Translations under genes and position numbers: made by a program | The notes under the pieces: generated by a model | Databases searched by the model: none | Told to the model about the DNA's origin: nothing | What the model saw: the letters and a program-made list of their open reading frames with translations, nothing else | Origin: an uncultured Gammaproteobacteria bacterium | Lineage (GTDB): Bacteria > Patescibacteriota > Patescibacteriia > UBA11705 > JABHMO01 | DNA length: 64,000 nucleotides | Assembly (NCBI GenBank): GCA_964486065.1 | Contig: CAZAKN010000001.1 | Span: 16,657-80,656 of the forward strand | Direction of reading: 5' to 3' | Shown here: one piece after another, positions 10,645 through 35,536 of the stretch | Layout: every line of letters starts with the position of its first letter | Numbering within the stretch: position 1 is the stretch's first letter

Positions 10645-10752
10645 TAATTACCGTGGACACCGACAAGAATCGGTACTATCTTTGTCCGCATTGGAAATAC
10701 AATATGGAAAAGAAAATATATAATAATACAAACGAAATTATTCACCCTAATT

Positions 10753-11364
10753 ATGGCTCCATCATTTCACAGTAAACGATTAAACAACAAAATAAAATCA
10801 ACTGATAATTTATATGTTTTTATAGATTCTTCAAATCTATGGGCTGCACAAAAATCTAAAGGTAAATTATTTGATTATCAAAAATTAATAAAATATATAT
10901 AAATAAAATTCAATCCTAAAAAAATAGAAATATTCTATTACACAGCTTATCCAGCTGATGGGACAAGAGATTACAGTTTAGATAAAAGACATAAGTTTTT
11001 CACATTCCTCAAAAAAGGTTTGGGATTCATTGTAAGGAAAAAACCATTAAAACGAATTAAGATAACTGATGATGAATTAGGCGAAGGAATAAAAGAAAAA
11101 GGAGATATGGATGTTGAAATAACAGTTGATGCAATGCATCATAAAGATAAATATGATACTGTAATTTTCTTTTCTGGTGACTCAGATTTTCTTGCATTGG
11201 TAAGTTATCTAAAAAATCTGGATAAAAAAGTATATATTTTCTCATCAAAAAATAATATTTCAGAAGAATTGCGTACTAGCGCAGATGGATATTGTGATGT
11301 ATTAACAATTAATGAAAATACAGATAACATCTGGGGCAGAGAATTAAAAAGAAGACTAAAATAA
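10753..11364 (+). pseudogene. NYN-domain (LabA/DUF88-like) ribonuclease gene interrupted by one in-frame TAA at 10900-10902
   Basis: The single frame 10753-10899 translates to ...VFIDSSNLWAAQKSKGKLFDYQKLIKYI. After the TAA the same frame continues with IKFNPKKIEIFYYTAYPADG...DVEITVDAMHH...FFSGDSDFLALVSYL. These are the three conserved acidic NYN motifs in order, on both sides of one stop codon. The locus is visibly more AT-rich than its neighbours. Confidence 0.6.
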
Positions 11365-11615
11365 AAACAACCCTCCGCAAGGAAGGTTGCCCTAAGATGT
11401 AACACCCTAACAGTTCTATGGCTAGAACTGTAAGACATTATCAATAGAACATCCCCATTATAATTATCAATAGAATAAATAAAATTTTTTACTAAATTTA
11501 GAATAATAATTATCCACAATAACTAAGCACAGCGCGGGAGAGTCACTAAGAACGATCAAAATACACATCGTTCTTAAATAATCATTTAACTTCATGATTC
11601 AAGAACTGAAATATT

Positions 11616-32964: not shown

Positions 32965-32979
32965 GCGTCCGTTTTTCAA
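32951..32979. terminator. bidirectional intrinsic terminator shared by convergent genes (stop codon TAA sits in the loop)
   Basis: AAACGGACGC-TTAA-GCGTCCGTTT, with an A-tract upstream and a T-tract downstream. It serves the + gene ending at 32964 and the - strand xerC/D gene ending at 32976. Confidence 0.7.
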
Positions 32980-33944
32980 TCTTTAATATTCTTGCCACCA
33001 TGATATTTCAAATATGTATCTCGCAAATCTTTATTTGTAACATGAGTATATATTTGAGTAGTGATAATATTTCGGTGTCCGAGAAATTCTTGAATCATTC
33101 TTAAATCAACTCCTTGACTAAGCAAATCCGTGGCATATGAATGTCGCAAAGTGTGAGGAGATGTGGCAATATCCAAACCGGCTATTTTGACATATTTTTT
33201 TACAATATTTTCAATGGATCTTGTGGTTAAACGACGAGTTGGCTTTTTTTCAGCGCCTTTAATGAAATTTACGAATAATGCTTTATCCATAATATGCCTG
33301 CGTGATTGTATATATTTGTTTATCCAAAATAAACATCTTTCGGAAAAAAATATGACTCGCGGTTTATTACCTTTGCCTTTAATGGTCAATTCCAAATATT
33401 TTTGATTGTCTTTAAGTGGAAATTGTTCAAGATTCAGTTGCACCAGTTCTGAAACCCTAAGACCGGTTGAAAAAAGTGTTTCCAAAATGGCGCGATCACG
33501 CAAACCGCCTTGCTCTTTAACATTTGGCGCCAAAATTAATTTTTCAATTTGTTCAAGTTTTAAAAAATGAACGGTTTTTTCTTTTGATTGTTTGGCCAAT
33601 TTGATTTTTTCACTCGGTAGGGAAGTTATATCCTTATCCGCGAAATAATTGAGCAAAGCTCGTAAAGCGATCAAATAATAGTTTTGCGTGCTTTTTTTCA
33701 ATGGTTGGTTGGATTTTTCAGAAGTCGTATTCCGAGATAAAAAAACTCTGTATTTCCAGATATGATCCGCGGTCAATTCATGGGGGAGAAGATTTCGCAA
33801 ATTTTGGTTTTTTAACCATTCGGCAAAACGATTTAAAAATCTGGAATAATTTTCTTGGGTTTTATTTGATAAACCTTTTTCAATTTCCAAATAATCAAGA
33901 AAATTCGGAATGTGTTTAATTATCGGCAGGGTAGAGTTTTGCAT
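32976..33944 (-). CDS. xerC: tyrosine site-specific recombinase XerC/XerD family
   Basis: N-terminal SAM-like core-binding domain and a C-terminal catalytic domain with R...HTLRHSYAT...LGHRNIITTQIYTHV. The R-H-R-Y tetrad context is conserved. Confidence 0.85.
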   Translation of the reverse strand: MQNSTLPIIKHIPNFLDYLEIEKGLSNKTQENYSRFLNRFAEWLKNQNLRNLLPHELTADHIWKYRVFLSRNTTSEKSNQPLKKSTQNYYLIALRALLNYFADKDITSLPSEKIKLAKQSKEKTVHFLKLEQIEKLILAPNVKEQGGLRDRAILETLFSTGLRVSELVQLNLEQFPLKDNQKYLELTIKGKGNKPRVIFFSERCLFWINKYIQSRRHIMDKALFVNFIKGAEKKPTRRLTTRSIENIVKKYVKIAGLDIATSPHTLRHSYATDLLSQGVDLRMIQEFLGHRNIITTQIYTHVTNKDLRDTYLKYHGGKNIKD

Positions 33945-34469
33945 ATTTATTCGGTTAATATCTAACTTCGCATAATATTGATTAAGAGAAGTAATCTATA
34001 CTTATTATAACCATTAAAACATATATATCAACCCATATATCCACAAATTGTCTGTTCAACTGTCAATCTCCCTTCAAACATACCGCTTATTACACATGTT
34101 TCATGAAAAGTTTTTGTTTTTTGAGTGTTATACCATTCGGCTAAAAAACCCTCGCTTACAACGCAATTTTGAGCCTCATTTTTTAGCTAAATTTGAAGTA
34201 ATATTGCACCCAGTTCAAACACATTGAAATATACATATTACATGATCTTTAACAGCTGAATTTCGGATTATTTTGAATGATAATATATGTGAAATATAAT
34301 TAATTTTCATATAGATATATACAAAAGATAAATATATTGGAAAAACGAAATTTATGAATAAATGCAAAATATATAATAAATAGTCATTTATATAACACGA
34401 AATATTGCCGCACTACTCCGACAAGCAAAAAACAACACATTGTGTCGTAAAATATCAAAAGAGGATAAT

Positions 34470-34491
34470 TGTGGATAATAAGTTATCCACA
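34470..34491. promoter_or_regulatory. inverted pair of perfect DnaA-box 9-mers (TGTGGATAA-taag-TTATCCACA) inside a ~650 bp AT-rich non-coding region
   Basis: Both arms match the DnaA-box consensus TTATCCACA exactly. A third near-box ATATCCACA lies at 34037-34045, and a further perfect box lies at 11510-11518. Confidence 0.4.
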
Positions 34492-34589
34492 GCTATTAAA
34501 GCAATTTCAAAACTACGAATTCATTTCATTACAAACATTTAATTTCATGGTAATGTTTATCAACCTTTTTCGCCTCCCCCACTCCAATT

Positions 34590-34614
34590 AAAAAAGGTGC
34601 CGTTATTACGACAC
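34590..34614 (-). terminator. intrinsic terminator ending the ftsQ-linked operon
   Basis: Minus strand reads GGTGTCG-TAATAAC-GGCACC followed by TTTTTT, 12 nt after the stop of 34626-35009. Confidence 0.5.
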
Positions 34615-34625
34615 CCTGTTTGAAA

Positions 34626-35009
34626 TTAGTTTTCGGGAAAATGCTTTCTGATTTCCCGTTCATTTTTTTCCGCCAGAGTTTCTTCCCGTTGTTCTGAAGC
34701 AACATTCTCGGAGCTTGAAGTTTGCTCCCCTGCTTCGCGAGCCTTTTTTCTCTCATCGGATCTTTCTTTCACCTTATCCGCTTGCTTGATTTTTTCCATT
34801 TTGGCCGCGTCTTGTTCTTCTCTGTCCTTGGTGGCTTTTTTTTGTACCTCCTCTTTAGCCGCGTCCAGCATCTCACCCAAATAAACGAAAAGTTCATGGG
34901 CAAAATATAGACCGATGAAGACCAGTGCCCAAGCAAAAAGAAAGGACACGACATTATCCAACGGTGAAGACAAGGCATTGCCCAGTGCGATGAACCAGTT
35001 CATTATCAA
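34626..35009 (-). CDS. membrane protein with two TM helices and a Lys/Glu-rich low-complexity tail
   Basis: The N-terminal 60 aa are hydrophobic, followed by a KE-rich charged tail. A 4-nt ATGA overlap with the upstream gene suggests translational coupling. Confidence 0.45.
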   Translation of the reverse strand: MIMNWFIALGNALSSPLDNVVSFLFAWALVFIGLYFAHELFVYLGEMLDAAKEEVQKKATKDREEQDAAKMEKIKQADKVKERSDERKKAREAGEQTSSSENVASEQREETLAEKNEREIRKHFPEN

Positions 35010-35536
35010 ACCTCCTTATGGGTTTTTGAGAAAGAATCCGATAATTCTTTCAGTCGTTGTTCCACTTCCCTGATCTCACGATTCAGATTGGCTGATTGTA
35101 TTTCCAACTTTCGCAAAGCGGATTGGCTCTCGGTATTGATGGAGGCAATCTTGGCTTTGGCGGTCAATTCAATTTTGAGCTTTTCAATAGCCAACTCTTG
35201 TCGCTTAACCGACAGTTCATTCAAGGATCCCATCAATCTACCGACTTTATCCTCACTTGTTTGGAAAAATCTGCCCCGAAAGGATTTGTTCTCCGGTTCT
35301 TTTTGCGCTGTATAAACATTTTGAGCGACCGTGCGGATTTCATCCCCAGCTTTGGTCAATGTTTTTTTCAGCTTATTACTTCCGTGCTTGAAGCTTGTTT
35401 CAAGACCGGAAATAAAACTCGCCAGCGCGGCCATCAATAAAACCATGATCAACACAAGACCGATTATTATCGGCCATTTTTCTTGTTGCGGAGAATTTAG
35501 GATTTCCCCCACGGTTTGCAAAATGTTTTCAAGCAT
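35006..35536 (-). CDS. bitopic coiled-coil protein (short cytoplasmic N-terminus, one TM helix, ~130-aa extracytoplasmic coiled coil); FtsL/FtsB/DivIC-like topology
   Basis: TM segment WPIIIGLVLIMVLLMAALASFISGL, followed by a continuous heptad-like stretch (LKIELTAKAKIASINTESQSALRKLEIQSANLNREIREVEQRLKEL). Confidence 0.5.
   Translation of the reverse strand: MLENILQTVGEILNSPQQEKWPIIIGLVLIMVLLMAALASFISGLETSFKHGSNKLKKTLTKAGDEIRTVAQNVYTAQKEPENKSFRGRFFQTSEDKVGRLMGSLNELSVKRQELAIEKLKIELTAKAKIASINTESQSALRKLEIQSANLNREIREVEQRLKELSDSFSKTHKEV

Follow-up and report, generated by a model that had tools for sequence, protein, structure and literature searches.

The 681-bp spacer upstream of the recombinase gene xer combines inverted DnaA boxes with AT-rich DNA, and this combination raises the question of what kind of region it is. 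The earlier note on this DNA considered an oriC-like or DnaA-regulated region, the binding site of a dimeric regulator, and a junction left by a XerC-associated mobile element. We analyzed the spacer in the context of the whole 64-kb stretch, here called the window, and of related loci from other genomes. The features identified are listed in Table 1.

RESULTS

The spacer upstream of xer is unusually long, AT-rich, and noncoding

The earlier description of an unusually long AT-rich gap of ~650 bp proved accurate: with 681 bp the spacer is the longest of the 61 intergenic gaps of the window (median, 24 bp), and its GC content is only 28.3% compared to 38.8% for the window. A credible open reading frame was likewise absent, as claimed, and hidden small ORFs could be rejected because tblastx similarity to the spacers of relatives was equal in all six frames. 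An Rfam search of the spacer at a permissive threshold gave no match, and tRNA-Trp at 8.7 kb was the only match in tRNA/tmRNA scans of the window. A multi-copy or MITE-like element was also rejected, as the spacer is single-copy within the window. The small minus-strand gene bordering the spacer probably starts with the ATG at 35003, which is preceded by GGAGG. The scanned window ORFs of at least 100 aa (Pfam, NCBIfam) represent housekeeping genes of a divergent low-GC bacterium, among them gltX, an M23 peptidase gene, an FtsQ-like gene, alr, serS, greA, and genes for PBP2, MreBC, DciA, a UvrD/PD-(D/E)XK helicase-nuclease, the ATP synthase operon, PriA, ClpB, and many glycosyltransferases.

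Table 1. Features of the spacer and the adjoining xer gene (positions in the window)
Feature	Position	Strand	Description
xer	32976-33944	-	XerD/XerC-like tyrosine recombinase, 322 aa, unclassified
Spacer	33945-34625		Between xer (32976-33944, -) and small gene (34626-35003, -)
dif-like Xer recombination site	33965-33992	-	11-6-11, ACTTCTCTTAA-TCAATA-TTATGCGAAGT on xer strand
Predicted xer promoter P2	34004-34031	-	-35 TTGATA (34031-34026), 16-nt spacer, -10 TATAAT (34009-34004)
Promoter-proximal DnaA-like box	34037-34045	+	ATATCCACA; 5 bp upstream of -35; most widely conserved box
Block D	34096-34194		Conserved noncoding; 75% identity over 99 bp with L034
AT-rich core	34200-34420		23% GC; weakly conserved, length variable; missing in relatives with ~230-bp spacers
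Block B, invariant core	34442-34452	-	TTTTACGACAC on xer strand; Xer-arm form, preceded by -10-like hexamer
Distal DnaA-box cluster	34460-34491		AGAGGATAA (34460-34468, 2 mismatches), TGTGGATAA (34470-34478), TTATCCACA (34483-34491)
Block A	34571-34585	-	G-run GGAGTGGGGGAGGCG on xer strand
Intrinsic terminator of upstream small-protein operon	34594-34617	-	10-bp stem, then T-run

The locus has the polarity of a replication terminus

The genes of the window are located on the plus strand up to 17.8 kb, on both strands up to 33 kb, and on the minus strand from 33 kb on, and the GC skew changes across the window from between +0.1 and +0.2 to between -0.15 and -0.25. As gene strand confounds GC skew, we used the skew at third codon positions (GC3 skew). 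In the mixed zone the coding-strand GC3 skew was +0.05 for plus-strand genes and -0.02 for minus-strand genes, and to the right of 33 kb it was +0.145 for the minus-strand genes and -0.05 for the two plus-strand genes. This change indicates that the leading strand switches at ~33 kb. The hexamer GGGGGA showed the same behavior: all copies (21:0) were present on the strand directed at the xer-dif locus, including five copies within minus-strand genes at 17.9 to 23.5 kb, and the strand flip is located between positions 33782 and 34575.

When 21 species-level relatives were oriented on xer, the gene was nearly always located where gene strand and skew switch from plus to minus, despite differing flanking genes. 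In the complete relative CP179889.1, xer is located at ~431 kb of 647.5 kb. In 35 non-redundant relatives, three G-rich words pointed toward dif on both sides of the site, namely AGGGGA (107:5 upstream, 83:5 downstream), GGGGGA (43:2 and 35:3), and GGGGAG (64:8 and 52:6), and these were retained as polar words. TGGGAG was polar in the window, yet it was distributed 16:16 upstream of dif in the relatives and was dropped.

The genes dnaA and dnaN were not found among the scanned window ORFs of at least 100 aa (Pfam). In a tblastn search of 828 kb of window and related loci, a DnaA query gave no hit, which is a weak test. Genes and G-rich polar words converge on the locus, which is the opposite of the pattern at an origin. 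On the basis of the 64-kb window and flanks of ±6 kb in the relatives, we therefore assign the locus to the terminus region of a chromosome of the Parcubacteria type (Patescibacteria). The skew inflection of an oriC-like region is indeed present, but genes, GC and GC3 skew, and polar oligomers have the sign of a terminus, with the skew running from plus to minus across converging genes instead of from minus to plus across diverging ones. The same polarity was found at xer in more than 20 relatives.

A dif site unique in the window is located between xer and its predicted promoter

The earlier note reported that no convincing dif-like 28-mer was present. This statement was wrong, as a 28-bp site composed of two inverted 11-bp arms and a 6-bp center is located directly upstream of xer. 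A matrix built from the sites of 35 relatives, with the window left out, assigned 29.9 bits to this site and 9.0 bits to the next best 28-mer in the 64 kb, showing that dif is single-copy in the window, and the full-site matrix detected neither a second dif nor a pseudo-dif there. The site agrees with the arm consensus of the clade at 20 of 22 positions, compared to 13 of 22 for the next best site in 13 kb. In 35 non-redundant relatives from the Parcubacteria, the same 11-6-11 site precedes xer by 5 to 181 bp. The consensus calculated without the window is ACTTCGCATAA-TATACC-TTAAGCGAAGT, and the Parcubacteria dif can be given approximately as ACTTCGCATAA-N6-TTAAGCGAAGT. Converging polar words surround the site both in the window and in the 35 relatives, and between the window and its 98% variant L111 not a single difference was found over 33954-33993. 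The two arms are palindromic at 9 of 11 positions in the window (clade mean, 7.6 of 11), and their similarity suggests that a single recombinase might bind both.

The protein encoded by the adjoining xer gene contains the Pfam domain Phage_integrase and a SAM-like N-terminal domain. The full set of catalytic residues (R, K, H-x-x-R, H, and Y) aligns with that of E. coli XerD, which is also the closest solved structure (1a0p, E = 6e-40). In NCBIfam the protein reached 232.8 bits for XerD (cut-off, 329.6), 221.7 bits for XerC, and 195.8 bits for XerA (cut-off, 220), in all three cases below the equivalog cut-off. With 121 bits compared to a cut-off of 267, it falls outside the XerS family as well. 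Relatives with 57 to 71% identity all originate from Patescibacteria/Parcubacteria bins, which carry labels such as Falkowbacteria, Nealsonbacteria, and Wildermuthbacteria.

The predicted promoter P2 matches the promoter consensus at 11 of 12 positions. The dif site begins ~5 nt past the transcription start predicted for xer and 20 bp upstream of the xer ATG, and it thus corresponds roughly to positions +5 to +32 of the predicted transcript. When at least 9 of 12 consensus positions were required, a near-consensus promoter ending 5 to 13 nt before dif was found in 23 of 36 lineages, compared to 3.7% at random positions. In the relatives these promoters often have a perfect TTGACA. The window thus shows the order promoter, dif, and xer ORF that is typical of the XerS/difSL type.

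Perfect DnaA boxes are enriched upstream of xer

The inverted pair of perfect boxes described earlier was confirmed: TGTGGATAA-taag-TTATCCACA at 34470-34491 contains two perfect DnaA boxes in inverted orientation separated by 4 bp. The further box AGAGGATAA, with two mismatches, is located 1 bp from TGTGGATAA and has the same direction as this neighbor. The near-perfect box at 34037-34045 and the perfect box at 11510-11518, the only other perfect one in the window, are also present as claimed. The reported excess over chance held for stringent matches. In Markov simulations of the spacer, 0.013 perfect boxes were expected, compared to the two observed, and none of 5,000 simulations reached two. 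With up to one mismatch, three boxes were found compared to 0.32 expected (P = 0.003), and for the whole window the corresponding numbers were 31 and 17.5 ± 4.3. Boxes with up to two mismatches were not enriched in the spacer (6 found, 3.7 expected).

Over 49 non-redundant loci, 12 perfect boxes were present in 34.5 kb upstream of xer, compared to 4 in 295.5 kb elsewhere, which corresponds to a ~26-fold enrichment. The frequency elsewhere is close to the chance prediction calculated arithmetically from the base composition of the window. Four of the 12 boxes upstream of xer come from outside the close clade. Boxes with up to one mismatch within 110 bp of dif were found in 5 of 36 lineages, representing about three independent events. 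By a rough calculation, chance would account for about 2 of 36, and the number alone is not significant.

Conservation of the spacer in relatives

The Logan contigs L001 and L002 belong to the same strain as the window (98% identity to the spacer over a 178-bp overlap and 100% across the spacer, respectively) and are uninformative for conservation. The metagenomes ERR4921265 and SRR7048223 also contain this strain, and assembly GCA_964434655.1 represents the 98% variant. The alignment with syntenic relatives proposed in the earlier note gave a divided picture, as several blocks of the spacer are conserved and the AT-rich core is variable or absent. The gene-free stretch upstream of xer comprises 612 to 907 bp in the closest lineages, which are L034 (71% Xer identity to the window) and L003/L086, L035, and L036/L037 (65%). 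It comprises ~530 bp in L112 (70%) and only ~230 bp in L113 to L115 (68%), which share the serS-alr-ftsQ-xer synteny. As spacer lengths vary between 230 and 907 bp, the AT-rich core is an expandable filler.

With respect to the DnaA boxes, the 8-mer TATCCACA (nTATCCACA) of the promoter-proximal box precedes dif by 44 to 52 bp in the window, L111, L034, L112, L113, and L115, its orientation being flipped in the last three. Similar boxes adjoin the -35 element in L023, L078, and L084. The distal box at 34483-34491, which reads CTGTGGATAAC on the xer strand, has been kept in L003/L086, L035, L036/L037, and L111 and is absent from L034, L112, L113, and L115. The partner arm that completes the palindrome occurs only in the window and L111, and a second perfect box with opposite orientation is located ~265 bp away in L003, L035, and L036. 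Most of the 36 lineages contain no DnaA box at all. The spacer of L111 shows 75 differences in 706 columns, none of them across 34457-34493. At the observed rate, such a difference-free run over 35 bp has a P value of ~0.02, which provides modest support for conservation of the palindrome. The position, number, and orientation of the boxes vary among the lineages, which speaks against reading them as DnaA operators.

Apart from the boxes, block D is recognizable in L112 and partly in L003, L035, and L036. The palindrome CTAAATTTAG, which block D has in common with the spacer at 11.5 kb, was found 5 times compared to 4.4 expected and was discarded as a chance similarity. The core of block B is represented by the regular expression TT[TG]T[AG]CGAC[AG]C, which matched 12 times in 574 kb. 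Eleven of these matches occupy the block B position ahead of xer in lineages of the synteny clade, and the twelfth is a genuine dif arm in L082. In 9 of 9 lineages of the synteny clade, the core lies upstream of dif and on the same strand. Its arm-matrix score of 5.9 to 10.2 bits is not significant on its own, as 25 arms with at least 10 bits occur in the window by chance. In the window, L003, and L036, the second position of the -10-like hexamer of block B, which is critical, is occupied by G, and a distal promoter is therefore doubtful. Block A contains, on its arm, the first GGGGGA word pointing toward dif. In many relatives a GGGGAG(T) motif is located ahead of the -35 element of the xer/dif promoter, and several hundred base pairs separate GGGGAG from dif in the close clade.

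DISCUSSION

A probable control region of xer and dif at the terminus

The window contains a unique dif site that is conserved in relatives, a promoter-dif-xer order, and DnaA boxes that are both conserved and enriched upstream of xer. We consider it rather probable that the locus is a terminus xer-dif module and that the spacer is its control or leader region with DnaA operator sites, so that DnaA would control xer. On the xer strand, such a region would begin with the terminator of the upstream operon, the G-run, the distal DnaA-box cluster, and the block with the Xer-arm-like core, continue with the expandable AT-rich filler, block D, and the promoter-proximal DnaA-like box, and end with the near-consensus promoter, the 28-bp dif, and xer itself (coordinates in Table 1).

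In this arrangement, Xer bound at dif would cover ~30 nt at the beginning of the xer transcript, and Xer is probably autoregulated via dif, by analogy with xerS-difSL. Le Bourgeois et al. (2007, PMC1914069) proposed autoregulation and protection against insertions at dif for that system, in which dif likewise separates the gene from its promoter. The DnaA boxes would serve as putative operators at which DnaA modulates xer expression in the role of a transcription factor. We favor this role of DnaA because the boxes adjoin promoter-like elements of xer. Such control would link the resolution of dimers with the replication cycle, and the palindrome of the window may represent a duplicated and strengthened form of an ancestral single box. 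The earlier suggestion of a DnaA-regulated region is plausible, and we prefer it as an explanation of the boxes because single boxes are conserved and enriched upstream of xer. DnaA is known to act as a transcription factor at promoter-proximal boxes, as described for DnaA-binding regions of B. subtilis (PMC4447404) and for gidAB-parAB of P. aeruginosa (PMC13438810). As in DnaA-regulated promoters, the consensus 9-mers at xer directly precede the -35 element or overlap it, and unlike the known targets, xer/dif was not reported as a DnaA target in the literature searched.

A more far-reaching proposal, which we put forward only tentatively, is that the DnaA boxes are conserved parts of the terminus xer-dif module in this Parcubacteria clade and that DnaA binds near dif and the Xer-arm-like half-site. 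It might then couple the initiation status to dimer resolution via xer transcription, via dif activity, or via a DARS/datA-like terminus element that senses the completion of replication.

Comparison with other Xer systems

Linked xer-dif modules and dif sites at the terminus are already well known. The closest parallel in layout is XerS/difSL of streptococci and lactococci, in which the recombinase gene is also linked to dif at the terminus and dif is also located between gene and promoter. The two modules differ in the recombinase, which is XerD/XerC-like in the window, and in the site, which is a classical 11-6-11 28-mer here; difSL is a longer, atypical site. The module of the window also includes DnaA boxes, and none are described for difSL.

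With XerCD/dif of E. coli and B. subtilis, the window shares the 28-bp 11-6-11 site with inner ...ATAA and TTAT... arms, its location at a skew switch with converging polar G-rich words, and a recombinase whose closest relative is E. coli XerD. The dif arms of E. coli and B. subtilis are palindromic at 6 of 11 positions, so that those of the window and its clade are much more alike. In E. coli, neither xerC nor xerD is known to be adjacent to dif. A near-palindromic dif is also found in XerH/difH of Campylobacterota and XerA/dif of archaea, both of which use one recombinase, and XerA is the third-best structural relative of the window Xer by sequence. XerH is only distantly related to the window protein (E = 5e-15), the XerA score lies below the NCBIfam cut-off, and the host is a bacterial CPR lineage, unlike the hosts of XerH and XerA.

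Alternative explanations

Among the alternatives, a DARS/datA-like element of the DnaA cycle retains the most weight, and we regard it as unlikely. According to this explanation, the inverted pair together with the third box would bind DnaA head-to-head and change its nucleotide state or titrate it at the terminus, and the copy number of the element would report the completion of replication. In the cores of E. coli DARS1 and DARS2, boxes I and II have opposite orientations with a 5-bp gap, and box III has the same direction as box II (PMC6868365). The distal cluster of the window resembles these cores, with adjacent opposite boxes at a similar gap (4 bp) and a third, two-mismatch box that follows its neighbor in direction at a distance of 1 bp, the agreement being one in the count and spacing of the boxes. 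The arrangement is unchanged in L111. Beyond this 98% variant, however, the three-box geometry is not conserved in the relatives, which keep either one box at the distal position (L003, L035, and L036) or none (L034, L112, L113, and L115), and the location at the terminus also distinguishes it from DARS1 and DARS2.

The remaining rivals are weaker. The spacer could be the relic of a dif-integrated mobile element, either an IMEX or a small plasmid, with a DnaA-dependent origin, and block B would then be a degenerate second attachment site. We attach little probability to this idea. The core of block B does have the form of a Xer arm, the same expression matches the true dif arm in L082, and the block precedes dif in direct orientation at a distance of 174 to 545 bp, the DNA in between being variable and AT-rich. 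The distance of several hundred base pairs between the GGGGAG motif and dif in the close clade would also fit. Against this stand the lack of a second dif in the full-site matrix search (next best, 9.0 bits), arm scores at background level, the single-copy nature of the spacer in the window, and the absence of element genes. Moreover, the order of the blocks is conserved across lineages with 65 to 71% Xer identity, even where the spacer has 230 bp, as would be expected of a chromosomal feature that is maintained. The XerC-associated mobile-element junction suggested in the earlier note therefore received no positive support.

An accessory architecture for Xer is, in our view, quite improbable. 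Here the half-site, with or without DnaA, would assemble or restrict the dif synapse in the manner of cer/psi, or would unload SMC. An invariant arm-like motif on the dif strand in all nine lineages of the synteny clade is what this explanation predicts, and a precedent is found at the B. subtilis terminus, where SMC is unloaded by way of XerD-binding sites; XerD-dependent unloading there is given as established in PMC12322038, where Karaboja et al. (2021) are cited for it. The score of the half-site, however, is not above background, and its distance from dif varies 3-fold.

Even less likely is that the palindrome only resembles DnaA boxes and is instead the operator of a dimeric regulator unrelated to DnaA or part of an RNA element (hairpin, terminator, or small RNA). 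The perfect 9+4+9 palindrome can fold as a 9-bp hairpin on both strands, and a terminator-like hairpin follows at 34448-34432. Folding was, however, no better than that of shuffled sequences (z scores of -1.6 and -1.8, not significant), the hairpin at 34448-34432 is broken by three substitutions in L111, and an Rfam match is absent; a structured RNA or terminator at the palindrome was rejected on these grounds. The dimeric regulator is weakened because conservation beyond the 98% variant extends to just one of the two arms. As the conserved unit in the relatives is a single 9-mer or 8-mer and not the palindrome, DnaA-like recognition is the better explanation compared to a dimeric palindrome binder.

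An oriC or oriC-like origin, at which DnaA bound to the boxes would unwind the neighboring AT-rich DNA and start chromosome replication, is very improbable and largely refuted. Two perfect boxes and one or two imperfect ones do adjoin 220 bp of DNA with 23% GC, within the longest noncoding gap of the window, and inverted perfect boxes flank an AT-rich stretch in L003, L035, and L036. However, every polarity signal in the window and the relatives has the terminus sign, the unique conserved dif is 480 bp away, dnaA and dnaN were not found among the scanned ORFs of at least 100 aa in the 64 kb, the weak DnaA tblastn search was empty, boxes with up to two mismatches are not enriched, DnaA-trio-like repeats were not seen by eye beside the boxes, and neither the AT-rich core nor the distal box is present in relatives whose spacer has 230 bp.

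Implications

A palindrome of DnaA boxes in a long AT-rich spacer is thus insufficient to call an origin, and an origin finder keyed to such boxes would misplace oriC here by half a chromosome. If the boxes truly bind DnaA, they would constitute a new regulatory link between replication initiation and dimer resolution at the end of the cycle in organisms with minimal regulatory repertoires. The literature searched contained nothing on links between DnaA and xer/dif or on dif/Xer in CPR bacteria. Judged by that literature, the dif site, the promoter-dif-xer module, and the candidate FtsK-orienting polar word (AGGGGA/GGGGGA) are apparently defined here for the first time for Parcubacteria, and all three offer a means of checking and orienting the many CPR genome bins that are fragmented.

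Polarity of the dif site and of short words around it

We compared the dif site of the window (33965-33992) with those of 26 relatives that have gltX in the locus. The two arms of dif are consistently unlike each other (...CGCATAA versus ...TTAAG...), and the CGCATAA arm invariably lies toward the chromosome arm bearing gltX, both where gltX is located upstream (18/18) and where it is located downstream (4/4). The xer gene was found on either side of dif across the relatives, always reading away from it. The constant orientation of the CGCATAA arm relative to gltX, together with the variable position of xer, shows that the polarity of dif relative to the replichores is fixed and that xer has switched sides.

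Polarity was also evident in short words, scored as copies on the strand pointing at dif versus copies on the opposite strand. Within the window (1-64000) and the loci L003-L090 of relatives around dif, the words AGGGGA, GGGGGA, and GGGGAG show a strong clade-wide polarity toward dif. In the relatives, the ratio for AGGGGA was 107:5 upstream of dif and 83:5 downstream. In many lineages a GGGGAG(T) motif immediately precedes the -35 element of the predicted xer/dif promoter. AGGGGA, GGGGGA, and GGGGAG are named here as a candidate FtsK-orienting (KOPS-like) word of Parcubacteria.

The 8-mer AGTGGTGG occurs 13 times in the window, dispersed as listed in the table, with a polarity toward dif of 13:0 and an abundance estimated from base composition at ~27-fold over expectation. 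As AGTGGTGG is neither frequent nor polar in the relatives, it may be either a KOPS-like word restricted to this lineage or a coding motif that recurs.

Positions of features in the window
Feature	Position	Strand	Remarks
AGTGGTGG copies	3800, 10175, 10377, 11835, 15150, 15460, 31840	+	word positions
AGTGGTGG copies	37458, 39443, 46100, 50627, 52789, 56433	-	word positions
Two small genes (125 and 176 aa)	34626-35536	-	between FtsQ-like gene and xer spacer
Third perfect DnaA box	11510-11518		within spacer 11365-11615, ~100 bp upstream of queA (start 11616)
ORF	11020-11364		NYN domain match, profile positions 59-143 of 145

Promoter, spacer, and neighboring genes of xer

The xer/dif promoters of relatives often contain a short inverted repeat within the 17- to 18-nt spacer between -35 and -10, e.g., in the xer loci L051, L047, L040, L017, L082, and L023. 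Its sequence varies by lineage (e.g., aggctcttcaaagagcct, gccctattttagggt, ggtcccagaggacc, and ccgtgttttggcacgg), so that palindromy is conserved and sequence is not. The corresponding spacer of the window promoter has no inverted repeat.

The same strain was also assembled independently from short reads, and the resulting Logan contig L001 (ERR4921265) ends inside the xer spacer at about window position 34122, 178 bp upstream of xer. Contig L002, from a different sample, spans the spacer and is identical to the window. The AT-rich core of the spacer may be hard to assemble.

The two small genes next to the xer spacer encode proteins rich in lysine and glutamate; both proteins have a hydrophobic stretch at the N terminus, and neither matches Pfam or NCBIfam. 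The pair, inserted where the FtsQ-like gene would otherwise adjoin the xer spacer, is absent between the ftsQ-like gene and xer in the relatives' loci L003 and L113-L115.

The region upstream of queA

One palindrome arm of the xer spacer and the third perfect DnaA box have the 12-mer ATTATCCACAAT in common; apart from ATTATCCACAAT, the spacer containing the third box showed no relation to the xer spacer. Positions 10645-11364 form a low-GC stretch (~32%). The ORF at its end matches the NYN domain in the C-terminal part only, so the gene has probably been truncated or has decayed.
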